UHGV virus genome: UHGV-0126695
Direction: 5' to 3' (one strand)
Length of the DNA: 24,402 bases
Origin: a virus
Shown here: positions 17,928-24,186 of the stretch, piece after piece
How positions within the stretch are numbered: position 1 is the first letter of the stretch
How the letters are laid out: each line of letters opens with the position of its first letter
The notes under the pieces: model-generated
Seen by the model: only the letters and a program-made list of their open reading frames with translations
Told to the model about the DNA's origin: nothing
Database searches by the model: none
Translations under genes and position numbers: made by a program

Positions 17928-18515
17928 TCACCCCCGCGTGGTGGACGGCGCGTTGTCGATGATTTCCAGACAGGCGTCGGTCAGTTTTTCCATGCGGTTA
18001 AACCAGCCGTTCAGGTATTTGCCCTGGGCGGGTTTGGATTTGATGATGTCGGCATAAAAGCGGGAACGACGGACAATGCAGCGGGTCAGCAACCAGTCCG
18101 GGGTGGACAGGCTCACGGCCTTACGGGTACGCGGGCCGATGATGCCGTCAGCATCCACATCAGCGGCTTCCTGCAAAATTTTGATAGCTTTTTTAACGCC
18201 ATGCTGAACCGCCGCATCGAACACAAACATCGCCACGCCATCAGGCCACTGGTCACATCCGGCAGGCAGCCAGTAATCGCGCCAGTAAATCTGCGCAACC
18301 TGTTCGCGGGTTAAATCCTTAATGCGGGTGTCGGGTTTACCATCGCCGTTGACATCGGTTTTGCCGTCAATCACACCGTCGCGGCGGTCAGAAATGCCGT
18401 ATTTGGTTTCGCCGCCACGGTCTGTGGGGTCATTGACATAGACGCCTTCGATATCAGGACGCAGAATAAAATTCAGCGCATGTTCAAAAGCCGGAGAGAA
18501 TTTTTGATTTTCCAT
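17928..18515 (-). CDS. Endolysin, glycoside hydrolase family 108-like N-terminal domain with C-terminal peptidoglycan-binding domain
   Basis: 195-aa ORF; N-terminus EGVYVNDPTDRGGETKYGIS matches the GH108 lysozyme signature region, and the C-terminal region resembles a PG_binding_3 domain. AGGTG RBS. Confidence 0.85.
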   Translation of the reverse strand: MENQKFSPAFEHALNFILRPDIEGVYVNDPTDRGGETKYGISDRRDGVIDGKTDVNGDGKPDTRIKDLTREQVAQIYWRDYWLPAGCDQWPDGVAMFVFDAAVQHGVKKAIKILQEAADVDADGIIGPRTRKAVSLSTPDWLLTRCIVRRSRFYADIIKSKPAQGKYLNGWFNRMEKLTDACLEIIDNAPSTTRG

Positions 18516-18615
18516 AAAAGCACCTGTGAAGCAGATTTAAACGTGGTCTGCTTCATGGTGCCGGAGGCATAAAAAAAGCCGGATTTACCGGCTTCATTGA
18601 ATTAAGGGAAGATAA
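18516..18615 (-). promoter_or_regulatory. Non-coding region upstream of the endolysin gene; candidate late promoter (P_lys-like)
   Basis: 100 bp between the cargo gene stop and the lys ATG. Contains the hairpin/T7 element and a perfect 8-bp inverted repeat gaagcaga-N11-tctgcttc (18528..18554) just upstream of the lys RBS. Confidence 0.45.
18571..18600 (-). terminator. Intrinsic terminator-like hairpin with T7 tract (minus strand), copy 2 of the duplicated element, upstream of the endolysin gene
   Basis: Minus strand reads TTCAATGAAGCCGGTAAATCCGGCTTTTTTT; 27 of 27 core positions match the 10860..10889 copy except one C/T difference. Confidence 0.6.
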
Positions 18616-19095
18616 CTACTCATCTCCTTTGATGGAGCAATCTATTACCATATCGTTACCCATCTTGAGAAATTTGGTTTGCATGAGAAAACCCTGTATC
18701 ACGTCAGTTAACCCATACCCTTCAACTTTTGTAGCTGAAACTACCATGTCAATAATTCGTTTCTGCTGCTTCTCTGTTAGTTCACCAATTGCTGACTCCG
18801 CAACTCGCGAGCATGCCACAAAAGAAGACAACACACCTGAAGGATTGTTTTCATAATCCTTCACTGTCGTCGTTGAGCTGACGACTTTATTGTTGATCGT
18901 AAATACCCCGAATTTGCTGTGAGCAGTTTCAGTTCCACCGTTCTTAATAGAATCGCCTCCCTTAAGAGGCTTCCAGCTATTTAGTGCAATGAGATCTTTT
19001 TCTGTCAGACGTTTTTTGATGACATCTTCAGCTGGCAACTTTGCCGCATTAGCGCAAAATACGCTCAGTAAAAGTATAAGAGGAAAGTATTTCAT
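18616..19095 (-). CDS. Secreted hypothetical protein (N-terminal signal peptide), cargo/moron gene
   Basis: 159-aa ORF with a typical signal peptide (MKYFPLILLLSVFCANA|AK). AT-rich by eye compared with the flanking late genes. Start overlaps the Mor stop (ATGA); followed by a terminator-like hairpin. Confidence 0.7.
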   Translation of the reverse strand: MKYFPLILLLSVFCANAAKLPAEDVIKKRLTEKDLIALNSWKPLKGGDSIKNGGTETAHSKFGVFTINNKVVSSTTTVKDYENNPSGVLSSFVACSRVAESAIGELTEKQQKRIIDMVVSATKVEGYGLTDVIQGFLMQTKFLKMGNDMVIDCSIKGDE

Positions 19096-19502
19096 GACTC
19101 ATCCTTAAACAGTTGCATTTGATATTTTCCACGCTCCAGCCTTCGCATTCTTTTGATAGCTTGATATACCGTTTTGTATGTCACTTTGTAACGCTGCACC
19201 AGTTCCGCTACGTTTTTCCCATCAAAATCACGCCAGATGCGCATGTCTCTGATAAGATTTTCCAGTATTTTCCCTTTAGGAACATATACCTGAATCCCAC
19301 CGATATGATTACAAATCGCCACTACCAACTCAAGGGAATGAACCGGGTTAACCCCAAGCCTTATCAGTTCCTGTCGCAACAGAGCATTCAGCTCTGAAAG
19401 TAGCGCCGGGTAAACATATTTTTCCTGATAATCGTGAAGATATTCCAGAACGCTGTCGTCCCGGAAGTCTTCGAATAAATCCTGCTCTTTCATTTGTTTC
19501 AT
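19092..19502 (-). CDS. mor: Mor/C-family transcriptional activator (Mor-like)
   Basis: 136-aa ORF; long stretches (YPALLSELNALLRQELIRLGVNPVHSLELVVAICNHIGGIQVYVPKG...IRDMRIWRDFDGKNVAELVQRYKVTYKTVYQAIKRMRRL) closely parallel the phage Mu Mor sequence as I recall it. Sits directly after GemA with ATGA overlap, as in Mu. Confidence 0.85.
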   Translation of the reverse strand: MKQMKEQDLFEDFRDDSVLEYLHDYQEKYVYPALLSELNALLRQELIRLGVNPVHSLELVVAICNHIGGIQVYVPKGKILENLIRDMRIWRDFDGKNVAELVQRYKVTYKTVYQAIKRMRRLERGKYQMQLFKDES

Positions 19503-20050
19503 ACAGCAATTCTCCCGCTGTTTCGTGCGCGGGCATACGCACTGGTCAGTGCATCATATCCGCGCAGCTCCCGCCCGGTTTCGCTCACAGGTAAAGGCAC
19601 ACCATGTCGGGCAAAGGCTTCACGGATGCAGCGCATATGCCACTGTTTGAGCGTTTCGAGCACAACCTGCAACGATTCCCCATGACACCAGGCCAGCGTG
19701 GAAACACCCTGACCACCATTACGTCTGGCCGTCAGGCGCTCAACGTATTTGTCCAGCGCAGCGTCGCTGATATCGGAAACGAAACCATCAAGGAACATCT
19801 GCTGCCAGATTTTGTAAATCTTCTCGCGTGGTGTGACATGCCCCTTAAAGCGACGGCGGGGATGTTTTTTCTGCTTCTTAAAACCGCGCTCTTTCATGGC
19901 ATCGAGCACTTGTTCCAGTTGTGCAACGGACAGCTCGCGGCAACTGGTTTTGCCCGTGCACTGCACCAGAAAAGCTCGGTAAGTGTCATCGTCGAGTTGC
20001 AACTCCCGACGGGCAACATGAATTAATTTAATCAGGGATGTGCGGCTCAT
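19499..20050 (-). CDS. gemA: GemA-like regulatory protein (Mu gp16 / DUF1018-like)
   Basis: ORF immediately upstream of mor; likely start ATG 20050 (MSRTSLIKLIHVARRELQLDDDTYRAF...). The track's longer version starts at 20095. Confidence 0.7.
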   Translation of the reverse strand: MSRTSLIKLIHVARRELQLDDDTYRAFLVQCTGKTSCRELSVAQLEQVLDAMKERGFKKQKKHPRRRFKGHVTPREKIYKIWQQMFLDGFVSDISDAALDKYVERLTARRNGGQGVSTLAWCHGESLQVVLETLKQWHMRCIREAFARHGVPLPVSETGRELRGYDALTSAYARARNSGRIAV

Positions 20051-20417
20051 TATGTCCCATCTCCTTAATGCAGTGTTTTTCGACCCATGCCACACGAGCA
20101 GAATTCAGGTGACATCTGCCAAGTCTGCATTCCTCATGATAGTGCGCTCTACTTTCATTGAAAGGTAATAATTCATCCAACTCGTTCGCGATAAAATCTG
20201 CACGTAATTGTTCTAATATATCTTCGGTATCCACTCCGATTTCGTCAAAATAACGACAAGCATTTGCACATAATCCTGAATATTGAACAAATATTTCACC
20301 CTCTGTTTCTGGTGCACCATTTTTTAACCACTGGTTATAGGCAACATAAAAATCATAAAGATGTTTTCTGGTGCTGGCGGATGTGGATTTAATTTCATTT
20401 TTCTCTGTGTTATTCAT
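20028..20417 (-). CDS. Hypothetical acidic Cys/His-containing protein (AT-rich accessory gene)
   Basis: Likely start ATG 20417 (MNNTEKNEIK...) with a GAGG RBS; C-terminal Cys/His cluster (HYHEECRLGRCHLNSARVAWVEKHC). The region is visibly AT-rich. Confidence 0.5.
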   Translation of the reverse strand: MNNTEKNEIKSTSASTRKHLYDFYVAYNQWLKNGAPETEGEIFVQYSGLCANACRYFDEIGVDTEDILEQLRADFIANELDELLPFNESRAHYHEECRLGRCHLNSARVAWVEKHCIKEMGHNEPHIPD

Positions 20418-20592
20418 TTCGTAATACCTCTTCGCAATAAAAGATTTCACTGGGATAACGTTTTTGTATGCGCTCCATCACCTGCATACATGCCTGCTCG
20501 GTGGGCCAGATTTTTTCCGTTACGGGTATGGCATCACAGGCATCATTCCCACAGGTGCCAACCAGCAGGACAAAGCCAATTGACTTAACCAT
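20410..20592 (-). CDS. Small Cys-rich protein with N-terminal hydrophobic signal-like segment (possible secreted protein or lipoprotein)
   Basis: 60-aa ORF MVKSIGFVLLVGTCGNDACDAIPVTEK...; it is the internal start of track ORF 20410..20688, chosen because the longer form would overlap the upstream gene. Below the 60-aa reliability range, so confidence is modest. Confidence 0.4.
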   Translation of the reverse strand: MVKSIGFVLLVGTCGNDACDAIPVTEKIWPTEQACMQVMERIQKRYPSEIFYCEEVLRNE

Positions 20593-21124
20593 GCTCGCTG
20601 ACTTCCTGTGTTGCCGCCGGAACCGGTGAATAATCAAGAATGAGATAGCGCAGGACGTGGTCGGTGATATTCCAGCCACTGGAACCACAAATAAAACGTC
20701 CCAGCCGGATATCGATATACGCCATCACAAAACGAGGCATTCCCTGTTTGCACATCTCGTCATCCACTTCAGCAACGATGTAAACCGACTCGCAGGTCAG
20801 TACGCCTGTCGCAAATTCTTTTGCCAGTGCCGGAATGGCATTGCCTTCCAGCCAGGGCAAAGAGCGGCGGAACGCGCACCATTGAGCATCATCAACAGCG
20901 GGGGGTTCCGTTGCGTTTCGTCTTACTGGCGGCGTCTGACGAGGGCGCGGAACGTCATAAAATCCGTTGCTTTCAGTGAGAACTCCGGCATCAACCGCAT
21001 CACGCAGGAAATACACCATTGAGGAAGGTGGCATATTCATTTTTTCAGCCAGAACGCCACAGGTCAGACGCCCGTAAGTCCGTAATAATGTGCTGACACC
21101 GTTCAGAACTTTTGCATCAACCAT
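20585..21124 (-). CDS. Hypothetical early-region protein with possible N-terminal winged-helix domain
   Basis: 179-aa ORF with an AAGGA RBS, in the early operon downstream of gam. Confidence 0.55.
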   Translation of the reverse strand: MVDAKVLNGVSTLLRTYGRLTCGVLAEKMNMPPSSMVYFLRDAVDAGVLTESNGFYDVPRPRQTPPVRRNATEPPAVDDAQWCAFRRSLPWLEGNAIPALAKEFATGVLTCESVYIVAEVDDEMCKQGMPRFVMAYIDIRLGRFICGSSGWNITDHVLRYLILDYSPVPAATQEVSEHG

Positions 21125-21223: not shown

Positions 21224-21748
21224 TTAAATACCGGCTTCCTGTTCAAACGGAATAATAGAAAAATCTTCAATGCCCGATTTAACTGTAATTCCGGCAACAC
21301 CTGCGACCGCTTTCGGTTCCAGTAAAATCGCTTCCTTGTTGATTTCCTGTTTCGTGCGAATAAAGCGTTGCAGGCCAAGACGCTCCAGTGTTTCCATCAC
21401 CGCATCCACACCGCGAATACTTACCGATGGTGGGCGCTGACGCCATGACACATCGCCGGTTACCAGGTTCGCCGTCTTCACCTTGCCGCCGTTCGTCAGT
21501 TCGTCACGGTTCGCTTCACACCATCCCTGAACGCCTTTTGAAAGGGTTTCAATGCTGGTTTTAAGCGGCGTAATCTGTGAGGCGTATTTCTCAGTAATTT
21601 CAGCGATAGCGTCATTCATTTCCGTTTCAAGTCGTGCCGCTTCGCGTTGCAGGTCACCAATCCGGCGAATATCACACACCACGGCATCGCGGGATTGTGG
21701 AACATAAGCTGCTGCGGCGTTCTTGATTCGTTTTGCTGGTTTAGCCAT
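21224..21748 (-). CDS. gam: Host-nuclease inhibitor protein Gam (Mu Gam, Ku-like DNA end-binding protein)
   Basis: 174-aa ORF MAKPAKRIKNAAAAYVPQSRDAV...GITVKSGIEDFSIIPFEQEAGI, matching Mu Gam in length and nearly throughout in sequence as I recall it. Confidence 0.9.
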   Translation of the reverse strand: MAKPAKRIKNAAAAYVPQSRDAVVCDIRRIGDLQREAARLETEMNDAIAEITEKYASQITPLKTSIETLSKGVQGWCEANRDELTNGGKVKTANLVTGDVSWRQRPPSVSIRGVDAVMETLERLGLQRFIRTKQEINKEAILLEPKAVAGVAGITVKSGIEDFSIIPFEQEAGI

Positions 21749-21768: not shown

Positions 21769-22056
21769 TTAATATTCGCTGTATACAATGCTGGATACAG
21801 CACGATTGCTTAATTCCATCTTTTGGGCAATGACATGAATAGCCAGCCCTTCTTTATAAAGTTCACGACATAAATATTTGTCGTGCTCACTGACCTGGTA
21901 TACACACAACGATATTCCGTGCCTTCTGGCATGTGCCTGTAGGGCGGTTGGGGCAACGTTCAGTTTTTTCGCCATTTCTTCAACGGTCAGTTTCCCGACA
22001 CTGGCTTCGATAAATTCCCGGTCTTCGCGTGACCAGCGTTTACGCTTACACATCAT
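21769..22056 (-). CDS. Hypothetical DNA-binding (HTH) protein
   Basis: Track ORF starts at a GTG (22068); the first ATG is at 22056 (MMCKRKRWSREDREFIEASVGKLTVEEMAKKLNV...). HTH-like segments; function unknown. Confidence 0.55.
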   Translation of the reverse strand: MMCKRKRWSREDREFIEASVGKLTVEEMAKKLNVAPTALQAHARRHGISLCVYQVSEHDKYLCRELYKEGLAIHVIAQKMELSNRAVSSIVYSEY

Positions 22057-22068
22057 TCCGGTCACCAC

Positions 22069-22502: not shown

Positions 22503-22766
22503 TCAGTGACATGTTCCTTCAACTGTCGTTTCTGTGACACTGCCGCCCGCAATGACGCCATCATTTTTCAGTATTTCAATGGCCTCATGGGCTGACTCGC
22601 GAACGATATCCCGGCTTTTTTCCAGAACCAGTAACGCTATCGCACCAGCAAGCGTGTACTCATCACCATCCAGTTCTGCGCTGTGGTCCACGTTAACATT
22701 GGTGCGTAAATCCTGCCCTTTAACTTCAGATGTCACATTTTTGATTTCGATAATGACTTTTGCCAT
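22503..22766 (-). CDS. Hypothetical early-region protein
   Basis: 87-aa ORF with a strong AAGGAG RBS 8 nt upstream of ATG 22766. Confidence 0.55.
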   Translation of the reverse strand: MAKVIIEIKNVTSEVKGQDLRTNVNVDHSAELDGDEYTLAGAIALLVLEKSRDIVRESAHEAIEILKNDGVIAGGSVTETTVEGTCH

Positions 22767-22779
22767 TTTGTTTCTCCTT

Positions 22780-23004
22780 TTAGTCCAGAATAACGCCTAC
22801 TTTTACTGTTGTGCCTTTTACCTGTTTAAAGAAAACCGCACTGCACCACGGGCAACATGTAAAGGTGTCCCATACTTCTTTCTCTGGTGAACATTGCGTC
22901 ATGATTTGCTCTTTGCATTTAGGGCAATTGAACGCAGTCAGTGCGACATTGTTGCTTTGTGCTCGTTTAACCCATTCGATATATTTCTCAGCACTAATAC
23001 ACAT
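22780..23004 (-). CDS. Small zinc-ribbon-like protein (two CxxC pairs)
   Basis: Likely start ATG 23004 (MCISAEKYIEW...) just after the Kil-like stop; contains CPKC and CPWC motifs. AT-rich. Confidence 0.5.
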   Translation of the reverse strand: MCISAEKYIEWVKRAQSNNVALTAFNCPKCKEQIMTQCSPEKEVWDTFTCCPWCSAVFFKQVKGTTVKVGVILD

Positions 23005-23006
23005 AG

Positions 23007-23234
23007 TTATCTCCAGATAATCTGACAACCATTAAGGCGTGCCGTCCATACTGAACGGGCAACCCCTGATTTATGCTCCATAATCCTGACAGCGTTTCTG
23101 ACCAGCTCCGGTGGTGGGCAGGTGATTTCAAGTACCGGGCGGGCTACGCCCAGCCAGGATTCGTTGACGTGGCTGCCGCGCTCCTGTAACCAGGTCTTTA
23201 CTTCCGTCGCCATTTTGATATTCCGTGACATCAT
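23007..23234 (-). CDS. Kil-like small early protein (assigned by position after B)
   Basis: 75-aa ORF starting at ATG 23234 ([12 protein letters not shown]...) with an AAGGAG RBS, immediately downstream of the MuB stop, the position of kil in Mu. The sequence assignment itself is not confirmed. Confidence 0.5.
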
Positions 23235-23247
23235 GATTTCGCTCTCC

Positions 23248-24186
23248 TTACGTGCGCAGCAGGGTTGAAATATCAACATCCAGGTCTAATTCACGGAAAG
23301 CCTGACGCAGATAATCTTCATTAACACGTTCACCTTTGCCGTGGGCGGTCATGGCCGCAAGGCGCAGCGAGTGGTTCAGGATGCGAAGCGCACCTGGTTT
23401 TTGTGCAATCTGCTGTAATAATTCCCGCTCGTTTTCGCCGGTAATTTGCCAGGCATCCGCAATGGCTTTTACATCATCAATTTTGGTTTTATTAATTGCC
23501 GTCCGTTTGGCAATACGGGAAAACAGGCGGGCAAATTCAACCGTTCTGTTACCACCGGTCATGTTTGAATAAACACGGTGATTCCCCATCAGAACAAGGC
23601 CAATACGGGCGGATTCCTGTAACAGGCGGAGTTCTTCCAGAACCTCAGCGCCAAGATGATCAGCTTCATCGATAATGACCAACCCCTGCGTACCTTCAAG
23701 GCGACGTCTCAAAGCGCGGGAGAGTGGCCCCTTGCGGCGCGGTGCGTCATTCATCCCCAGTTCATAAGCCAGTTCCGTCAGGCATTCCAGAACACTGGCA
23801 CAGGATGGGGTAATGGTGATCATCCAGACATTGTTATTGGTGCGACGAAATTCGCGGGCCGCTTCAGTTTTTCCCACACCTGGATTACCGCAGATAACAG
23901 AAATACTTTCAGTCAGGCTGGCAAAACGCATACTCGTCCAGATTTGGCGTGCTGTTCTGGTTTCCACAAAACGTGGTGGTTCTGGCAGCTCTGCGGCACG
24001 GTGATAGTTCTCCAGCCAGCGTTCCAGCGTCTGCGCAACACGTTCATTGTCGCCGTTGTACTTGTTATTCACGAATGCGCTTAACGTTCCTGCGGCCACG
24101 CCAGACTCGCGTGCAATTTGTGCATAAGTCGCTTTTTCACTTTCTACAAGCGTGCGCAGTCCTGCGCGAATATCGGAAATATTCAT
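23248..24186 (-). CDS. B: DNA transposition protein B (MuB AAA+ ATPase, target DNA activator)
   Basis: 312-aa ORF with a Walker A motif ([14 protein letters not shown]) and near end-to-end resemblance to Mu B as I recall it ([15 protein letters not shown]...PRFVET...[19 protein letters not shown]...). ACGAGG RBS. Confidence 0.95.

Follow-up and report, generated by a model that had tools for sequence, protein, structure and literature searches.

Two unrelated, exchangeable small genes between gp11 and gemA of a Mu-like prophage are plausible host-manipulation or anti-defence candidates

What do two small genes in an AT-rich islet contribute to the early operon of a transposable phage, and do they act as a pair? 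The genes in question, here called ORF60 and ORF129, lie side by side in a viral sequence of 24,402 nt (UHGV-0126695; this whole stretch is referred to as the window), which is a Mu-like transposable prophage with the genes of its early operon on the minus strand. An earlier, sequence-only reading had described them as translationally coupled cargo of atypical composition, with a possible role in anti-defence, host takeover or exclusion. We find that ORF60 and ORF129 are unrelated accessory cassettes that are exchanged independently of one another in a hypervariable slot, a conclusion that is well supported, and that, as members of uncharacterised protein families confined to phages, they are plausible candidates for host manipulation or anti-defence. 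The two genes, and the features that define the islet, are as follows.

20410-20592, minus strand: ORF60, 60 aa, including the stop codon (coding 20413-20592, stop 20410-20412); identified as an open reading frame, by its translation and by phrog_16556
20028-20417, minus strand: ORF129, 129 aa (ATG at 20417, stop 20028-20030); identified as an open reading frame and by phrog_6418 / phrog_2510
20585-20592, minus strand: 8-nt overlap ATGGTTAA between the ORF60 start codon and the stop codon of the gp11-like gene, also annotated in STEC388
20410-20417, minus strand: 8-nt overlap ATGAATAA between the ORF129 start codon and the ORF60 stop codon, also annotated in STEC388
20028-20050, minus strand: 23-nt overlap between the 3' end of ORF129 and gemA, whose ATG is at 20050, from the sequence and the reading-frame coordinates
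20102-20491: the 390-nt stretch with the lowest GC content (0.369) of the whole 24.4-kb window

Both open reading frames (ORFs) are open where they had been placed, at 20028-20592, and RefSeq annotates the same two coding sequences (CDSs) in related E. coli prophages, confirming two adjacent genes on the minus strand. The two 8-nt overlaps, of the gp11-like gene with ORF60 and of ORF60 with ORF129, follow the pattern ATGnnTAA. In the RefSeq records, the gp16-family CDS overlaps the 129-aa CDS as it does in the window, and the Shine-Dalgarno-like sequences AGGAAG and GAGG can be read upstream of the ORF60 and ORF129 starts. These start/stop overlaps strongly indicate translational coupling of the gp11-like gene, ORF60, ORF129 and gemA. 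The AT-richness that had been noted for the islet is equally evident: GC content is 0.387 in ORF129 (0.32 at third codon positions) and 0.454 in ORF60, as compared with 0.55 for the whole window, and only 0.6% of the 390-nt windows along the sequence reach a GC content as low as that of ORF129. There are other low-GC patches, at 18400-19460 and 22630-23110, of which the islet is the most extreme, and its AT-richness is due mainly to ORF129. The islet has no Rfam match and no repeats, no evidence was found for plus-strand ORFs within it, and a megablast search of the islet against phage genomes gave no match; close relatives at the DNA level were confined to E. coli prophages.

The slot that holds the two genes is bounded by a gp11-like gene and gemA. 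The upstream neighbour had previously been taken for gam; it is the gp11-like gene, with gam one gene further on.

20585-21124, minus strand: Mu gp11-like gene, 179 aa, upstream anchor of the variable slot (PF25754 Gp11_C, E 3.8e-39; phrog_1949)
19499-20050, minus strand: gemA (Mu gp16 family), 183 aa from the ATG, downstream anchor of the slot (PF06252, E 1.1e-32)

The window GemA is ~81% identical to Mu GemA. In phage Mu itself, the interval between gp11 and gemA contains gp12, gp13, gp14 and, on the opposite strand, gp15. No homology to the known Mu early proteins emerged when the ORF60 and ORF129 family profiles were compared with Mu gp14, gp12 and gp13 (hhalign probabilities of 0.1%, 0.2% and 0.5%, respectively), and a tblastn search of phages with ORF60 did not match Mu. 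Within a single lineage of E. coli prophages, in which the genes on either side of the slot share 93-97% DNA identity, the slot has three arrangements. The order gp11-ORF60-ORF129-gemA is found in the window and in STEC388, RM9088 and XJ34. The RIVM strains (e.g. RIVM_C019217) have gp11-ORF60-gp14-like/gp15-like-gemA without ORF129, their ORF60 being 95% identical and the next gene being 71% identical to Mu gp14. TD225-C4 and E300082 have gp11-ORF129-gemA without ORF60. The latter two prophages carry a 36-nt remnant of ORF60, and the TD225-C4 copy (L011 ~2018-2048) is identical to the 3' end of ORF60 (window 20418-20453), indicating that the prophages without ORF60 lost the gene by deletion, rather than never having acquired it. 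A search of 5426 complete E. coli genomes located ORF129 DNA in 14 and ORF60 DNA in 49. Both genes occur together in 12 complete E. coli genomes. Outside this E. coli prophage lineage, the examined homologues of each gene occupy different neighbourhoods, with no sign of the partner. The independent presence of the two genes, in a slot whose content differs in Mu and in sister prophages, upholds the earlier view of accessory cargo of atypical composition within the early operon.

These observations also bear on whether the two genes might work as a single two-component module, for example an enzyme plus a partner protein or a pair resembling a toxin-antitoxin system. They are adjacent, they overlap by 8 nt, and they are co-present in 12 complete genomes, all of which is consistent with such a module. 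We nonetheless give this reading almost no credence. Each gene is present or absent independently of the other in otherwise near-identical prophages, and no partner was seen beside the homologues inspected in other phages, which excludes a two-component system and, with it, a functional pair. Moreover, the same 8-nt overlap joins ORF60 to the unrelated gp11-like gene, indicating that coupling is a property of the operon and not of the pair. Both genes are restricted to phages and are essentially absent from plasmids: a search of 72,556 plasmids yielded one record for ORF129 and 12 records, mostly non-mobilizable, for ORF60. The sole ORF129 record is a non-mobilizable plasmid of 92.8 kb with phd/doc-type toxin-antitoxin genes, which we read as a phage-plasmid.

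A consensus scan of the minus strand between 18400 and 21900 detected no sigma-70-like promoter site; the same scan detected a terminator-like hairpin at 18595-18575, after a 159-aa ORF. Linked by start/stop overlaps, and with no promoter-like site found for either, ORF60 and ORF129 are placed within the repressor-controlled early transcript, which argues against a role in the lysogen. Both genes are predicted to be expressed, through translational coupling, from the long early operon.

ORF129 has no match in Pfam, NCBIfam or PADLOC, even when each member of its family is scanned separately at E ≤ 1. It matches phrog_6418 (E 1.6e-42, residues 13-118 aligned with positions 58-163 of 231) and phrog_2510 (E 1e-30, residues 14-123 aligned with positions 4-113 of 219). 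An exhaustive hidden Markov model (HMM) search yielded 675 cluster representatives at E ≤ 1e-3, each representing a cluster at 50% identity, and the domain that defines the family is ~100 aa long, corresponding to ORF129 residues ~18-116. By tblastn, the domain was found in 192 phage records, with Phapecoctavirus (three places per genome), Justusliebigvirus, N4-like phages of Erwinia and Achromobacter, siphophages such as Shuimuvirus IME207, and Rhizobium phages among them; the family is frequent in both lytic and temperate phages of Proteobacteria, often with more than one copy in a genome. In the three genomes whose context was inspected, namely those of Phapecoctavirus, N4-like and Shuimuvirus (IME207) phages, the homologue is a stand-alone gene of 102-108 aa in an early cluster of small hypothetical genes. 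Longer family members carry tandem duplicates or triplicates of the domain. One protein of 344 aa (P0039) has three tandem copies, in which Tyr takes the place of His in the (C)H-x-N motif, and the Cys of G-x-C, the P-F-N motif, the Asn and the Arg are retained; ~10 other proteins have two copies. The domain is also fused to Lar (P0038, a single case among 44 multidomain members), to a dATP/dGTP pyrophosphohydrolase together with DUF7415 (P0031), to DUF551 (P0085), and to other unnamed modules in E. coli prophage proteins of 160-440 aa. Tandem repeats and fusions of this kind are typical of binding modules, and suggest that the ORF129 domain is one.

An AlphaFold2 (AF2) model of ORF129, built from an alignment of 111 sequences, predicts a five-helix bundle with a predicted local distance difference test (pLDDT) score of 85.1 and a predicted template modelling (pTM) score of 0.77. 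The predicted helices span residues 14-32, 49-60, 64-77, 90-99 and 106-120, such that the domain occupies residues ~14-120; the N-terminus (1-8) and the C-terminal tail (121-129) are disordered. ORF129 has no sequence match in the PDB and no relative among solved structures. A large family that has no name, is predicted to fold with confidence and lacks any relative by fold, it makes a sensible subject for functional studies. Five columns of the alignment are invariant (W30, G48, C50, P85 and F86), and a further thirteen are at least 90% conserved (L20, F23, Y24, Y27, G34, F43, L49, F75, Y93, N105, R108, W111 and V112); the polar columns R45, N52, E70, Q74, N87, E96 and H103 are conserved at ~72-89%. 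ORF129 contains five Cys and seven His, and it is acidic, as had been claimed (pI 5.1, net charge -10), but the C-terminal Cys/His cluster that had been singled out is not conserved in the family: of the 111 sequences, 29 retain C97, 71 retain C102 and 14 retain C116. A zinc finger formed by this cluster was rejected on these grounds, C50 being the only invariant Cys. Mimicry of DNA, of the Ocr/ArdA type, was likewise rejected in view of the heterogeneous charge of the family, in which the 10th and 90th percentiles of pI are 4.6 and 8.6 and 14% of members have a value above 8; since acidity is not a family trait, such mimicry is unlikely.

Comparison of prophage alleles suggests that ORF129 is constrained, yet fast-evolving. 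Its rate of non-synonymous substitution (dN) is 0.13-0.15, as compared with 0.005-0.05 for the neighbouring genes, and its ratio of non-synonymous to synonymous substitution (dN/dS) is 0.29, as compared with 0.02-0.08 for GemA, Gam and Mor. Relative to the closest allele, seven of eight nucleotide differences are non-synonymous. The higher dS of ORF129 (0.45-0.52) suggests allele exchange. For ORF60, dN/dS is 0-0.18.

ORF60 matches phrog_16556 over the full length of the profile (E 1.2e-28, residues 2-59 aligned with positions 1-55 of 55). A profile search yielded 279 proteins, nearly all of 56-69 aa, in prophages and temperate phages of Enterobacterales, with homologues in Salmonella, Yersinia, Serratia, Pantoea, Erwinia, Edwardsiella, Hafnia and Tatumella. 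In temperate phages of Yersinia, Aeromonas and Hafnia, the homologue lies in an early operon that leads to xis/int. The operon of the Yersinia phage also contains genes for Lar, methyltransferase and the theta subunit of DNA polymerase III (pol III), with ssb at its upstream end, and the ORF60 homologue adjoins the pol III theta homologue; in the Aeromonas phage, the ORF60 homologue directly follows recT. ORF60 has no match in Pfam, NCBIfam or PADLOC and no sequence match in the PDB. DUF1482, a Pfam family of small enterobacterial phage proteins of unknown function, gave weak, sub-threshold matches in 3 of 53 ORF60-family members (best E 0.038), and none for the window ORF60; the ORF60 family may be remotely related to it.

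The four Cys that had been counted in ORF60 (C14, C19, C35 and C53) are all invariant in the family, whose consensus is MLIGFVLLVSACG-x-DACDALPV...C...C. Their spacing, C-x4-C...C...C, includes no CxxC pair. A zinc-ribbon or zinc-finger assignment was rejected, there being no CxxC/CxxH knuckles and no Pfam zinc-ribbon match for either ORF60 or ORF129. The AF2 model of ORF60 (pLDDT 89.5), taken to be a small soluble protein, has the topology beta(2-12)-beta(21-29)-alpha(32-45)-beta(51-59), which would put C14, C19 and C53 at one end of the sheet and C35 at the opposite end. The sequence-only reading had also drawn attention to the hydrophobic N-terminus of ORF60; taking it for a signal or membrane segment does not hold. 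A typical lipoprotein signal peptide is longer, with a basic residue near the N-terminus, G/A/S at position -1 and the Cys at ~15-35. In the ORF60 family, the segment is almost invariant and consists of 11-13 residues before a first Cys at position 12-14, usually without K/R; most members start MLIGFVLLVSAC, and the window ORF60 has Thr at position -1 of the first Cys. Residues 2-12 form strand 1 of the AF2 core, with pLDDT ~93. Because the N-terminus is short, uncharged, near-invariant and modelled as a core strand, we reject the signal-peptide, lipoprotein and membrane-protein readings of ORF60.

What, then, might the two proteins do? We favour an account, which we think probable, if only just, in which ORF60 and ORF129 are two unrelated, exchangeable cassettes that each act alone on a host component early in development. 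Both proteins are small and are predicted to be confidently folded, with no predicted signal peptide or membrane segment; substitution ratios indicate that both genes are under purifying selection; and each gene recurs alone in early accessory clusters of many unrelated phages. Each protein, on its own, would serve as a stoichiometric binding module in early lytic development, following induction or infection. The target would be a host component, and not the phage's own machinery: either an immunity factor or a factor in DNA/RNA metabolism. ORF129 would bind through a conserved polar surface around the invariant C50, with N52, N87, Y93, E96, H103, N105 and R108, and ORF60 would be held together by its four invariant Cys, as a metal site or as disulfides. 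Neither protein would be needed for transposition, replication or morphogenesis. Several points weigh against this account. Its host target and function are themselves inferred; the set of Cys, His, Asn, Glu and Arg in ORF129 would suit a small enzyme or a small-molecule binder equally well; and the clustering in space of the conserved ORF129 residues, or of the ORF60 Cys, is presumed. In addition, the rarity of the two genes in E. coli (0.3-0.9% of genomes) shows that they are dispensable for the prophage lineage, and a benefit does not follow from it.

An alternative to early action on the host is that ORF60, expressed from the prophage, is a small lipoprotein or membrane protein that blocks incoming phages, in lysogenic conversion or superinfection exclusion. 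The N-terminus of ORF60 (MVKSIGFVLLVGTC; LLVSAC in most relatives) does superficially resemble a lipobox, and an AT-rich composition is moron-like. We nevertheless consider exclusion very improbable: most ORF60 relatives have only 11 residues before the Cys, and the near-invariance of this predicted core strand is unlike that of signal peptides; the coupled genes sit inside a repressible early operon, where the scan of the coding strand revealed no promoter-like site; and strictly lytic phages abound in members of the ORF129 family. The earlier suggestion of exclusion cargo is therefore unlikely to be correct.

The two kinds of host target remain to be weighed against each other. In one, ORF129, ORF60 or both would inhibit an anti-phage system, by binding a sensor or effector or by sponging an immune signal; we regard this as a serious possibility, though short of probable. 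Small, early, fast-evolving genes are the typical profile of counter-defence, as is consistent with the elevated dN of ORF129, and the foreign composition, the variable slot, and the spread over unrelated phages with several paralogues per genome point the same way. So do the natural fusion of an ORF129 domain to a Lar restriction-alleviation domain and the Yersinia phage operon in which an ORF60 homologue accompanies Lar and DNA methyltransferases; tandem repeats and conserved polar residues would suit a ligand sponge. Against this, plasmids essentially lack the genes, and this extends to conjugative plasmids, whose leading regions are a known site of anti-defence genes; Ocr/ArdA-type mimicry is unlikely for a family that is not uniformly acidic; a lone Lar fusion is a weak association; and neither gene turned up in the supplements of two papers that screened accessory genes of phages. 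In the other, the proteins would modulate a housekeeping function, such as replication/repair, transcription, proteolysis or nucleotide pools, without involving immunity, in the manner of Mu Kil, Gam and GemA, a possibility that we rate only slightly lower. Early neighbours of such a role are present (Gam, GemA, Mor and the D5-like regulator), and the occurrence of the ORF129 family across many Proteobacteria phages, including lytic ones, fits a conserved target better than a patchy defence. The fusion to a dATP/dGTP pyrophosphohydrolase, a nucleotide-pool enzyme, and the positions of ORF60 homologues after recT and beside pol III theta, near ssb, are consistent with this. However, the genes are very patchy even in sister prophages, and the fast evolution of the ORF129 protein is more suggestive of an arms race; moreover, this explanation offers a candidate class of target and names none. 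Overall, the patchy presence, the rapid evolution, the existence of paralogues and the fusion to Lar tend to favour counter-defence, and the very broad spread in Proteobacteria phages, the fusion to a nucleotide-pool enzyme and the neighbours from DNA metabolism tend to favour host takeover; the data do not discriminate between the two. A further version of counter-defence would make the ORF129 domain a new, widespread family of phage immune-evasion folds, ORF60 an independent four-Cys inhibitor, and the slot a counter-defence hot spot that is likened to the anti-CRISPR loci of Pseudomonas Mu-like phages. ORF129 would then act through a conserved Cys/His/Asn/Arg pocket, as an immune-signal sponge or an inhibitor of a conserved sensor. 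We consider this version rather unlikely.

The locus is ordinary mosaic accessory cargo of a transposable prophage, and its interest is practical. In Mu-like prophages of E. coli, the interval between gp11 and gemA is a well-delimited swap-slot that could be mined systematically for host-interaction genes, and the natural variants with both genes or only one provide ready near-isogenic comparisons. Members of the ORF129 family are present in numerous lytic coliphages of a type that is being considered for therapeutic use, and a function for its domain would annotate hundreds of 'hypothetical' early genes at once.

The remainder of the early operon in the window contains the following recognizable genes.

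23248-24186, minus strand: MuB-type AAA ATPase, followed downstream by several small ORFs
21769-22068, minus strand: D5-like regulator, counterpart of Mu gp9
21224-21748, minus strand: Gam (PF07352)
19092-19502, minus strand: Mor (PF08765)

Past mor, the minus-strand order continues with the 159-aa ORF, whose product has a hydrophobic, signal-like N-terminal segment, and then a GH108 lysozyme gene. The 159-aa ORF (18616-19095, minus strand; GC ~0.42) begins MKYFPLILLLSVFCANA... and matches phrog_38744, a family of unknown function; it sits between mor and the lysozyme gene, with the terminator-like hairpin at 18595-18575 after it. It is present in the sister E. coli prophages RIVM_C019217 and TD225-C4 and missing from STEC388 and XJ34, and thus constitutes another variable cassette. 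The encoded protein is probably exported, and is a better envelope or exclusion candidate than ORF60 or ORF129. The low-GC patch at 22630-23110 (~0.42), upstream in the early operon, contains an 82-aa ORF (22780-23028, minus strand) with zinc-ribbon-like CPKC...CCPWC motifs and a weak match to NF011481 (E 0.005). The E. coli STEC388 prophage is the closest complete-genome relative of the region; in it, lysozyme, gam and one more early gene, at 2472-3068, 5324-5840 and 5861-6148 of record L001, are pseudogenised by an internal stop or frameshift, and ORF60 and ORF129 are intact.

How do the two proteins compare with systems already described? The remark that neither resembles a nameable protein stands: neither matches a known defence or anti-defence family by sequence (Pfam, NCBIfam and PADLOC) or by fold, and PADLOC HMMs at E ≤ 0.1 gave no match for ORF60, ORF129 or five other window ORFs that were scanned. 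Searches of the literature by text and by motif string, and of the two screening papers' supplements, returned nothing on either gene. Lar, Ocr/ArdA, KlcA/ArdB, anti-CRISPRs (AcrIC8) and sponges (Acb2/Tad) have no sequence relation and no significant fold relation to ORF129 or ORF60, and the likeness to nucleotide sponges such as Acb2/Tad would be an analogy. Among uncharacterised families, phrog_6418 and phrog_2510 share with ORF129 the ~100-aa domain with F-Y..Y..W, G-L-C, P-F-N and (C)H-x-N-x-x-R-x-x-W-V; their profiles have 219-231 positions, whereas ORF129 spans one domain's worth. The Mu-prophage subfamily of ORF129 differs in its extra 17 residues at the N-terminus and in a C-terminal tail of 13 residues, which overlaps gemA, and departs from the consensus at Q74 (D), with the window copy departing also at R45 (Q) and G79 (E). 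ORF129 stands alone in the transposable phage, unlike the shuffled modules of the 160-440-aa prophage proteins (P0019, P0022, P0064, P0080 and, with DUF551, P0085), which we take to be of the 'ea'-region kind of lambdoid phages; they too are uncharacterised and lend no function. Similarly, phrog_16556 shares with ORF60 the four invariant Cys and the CG-x-DACDA-[IL]-PV motif; the ORF60 proteins of E. coli and Salmonella Mu prophages start MV/IKS- and have G-T before the first Cys, whereas most relatives start ML- and have S-A.

The closest parallel is one of position. The non-essential early region of Mu-type phages is rich in dispensable accessory functions, and Mu gp12-gp15, like ORF60 and ORF129, are small and lie between gp11 and gemA in the same operon. 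Mu gp13 (NC_000929, 3472-3654) is exactly 60 aa long and very Cys-rich, with several CxxC pairs; it is a multi-CxxC sequence of the zinc-ribbon type and is unrelated to ORF60, which lacks CxxC. Both ORF60 and ORF129 already belong to PHROG families of unknown function and occupy a known kind of place, and the gp11-gemA slot appears to hold, repeatedly, small Cys-containing proteins of different origin.

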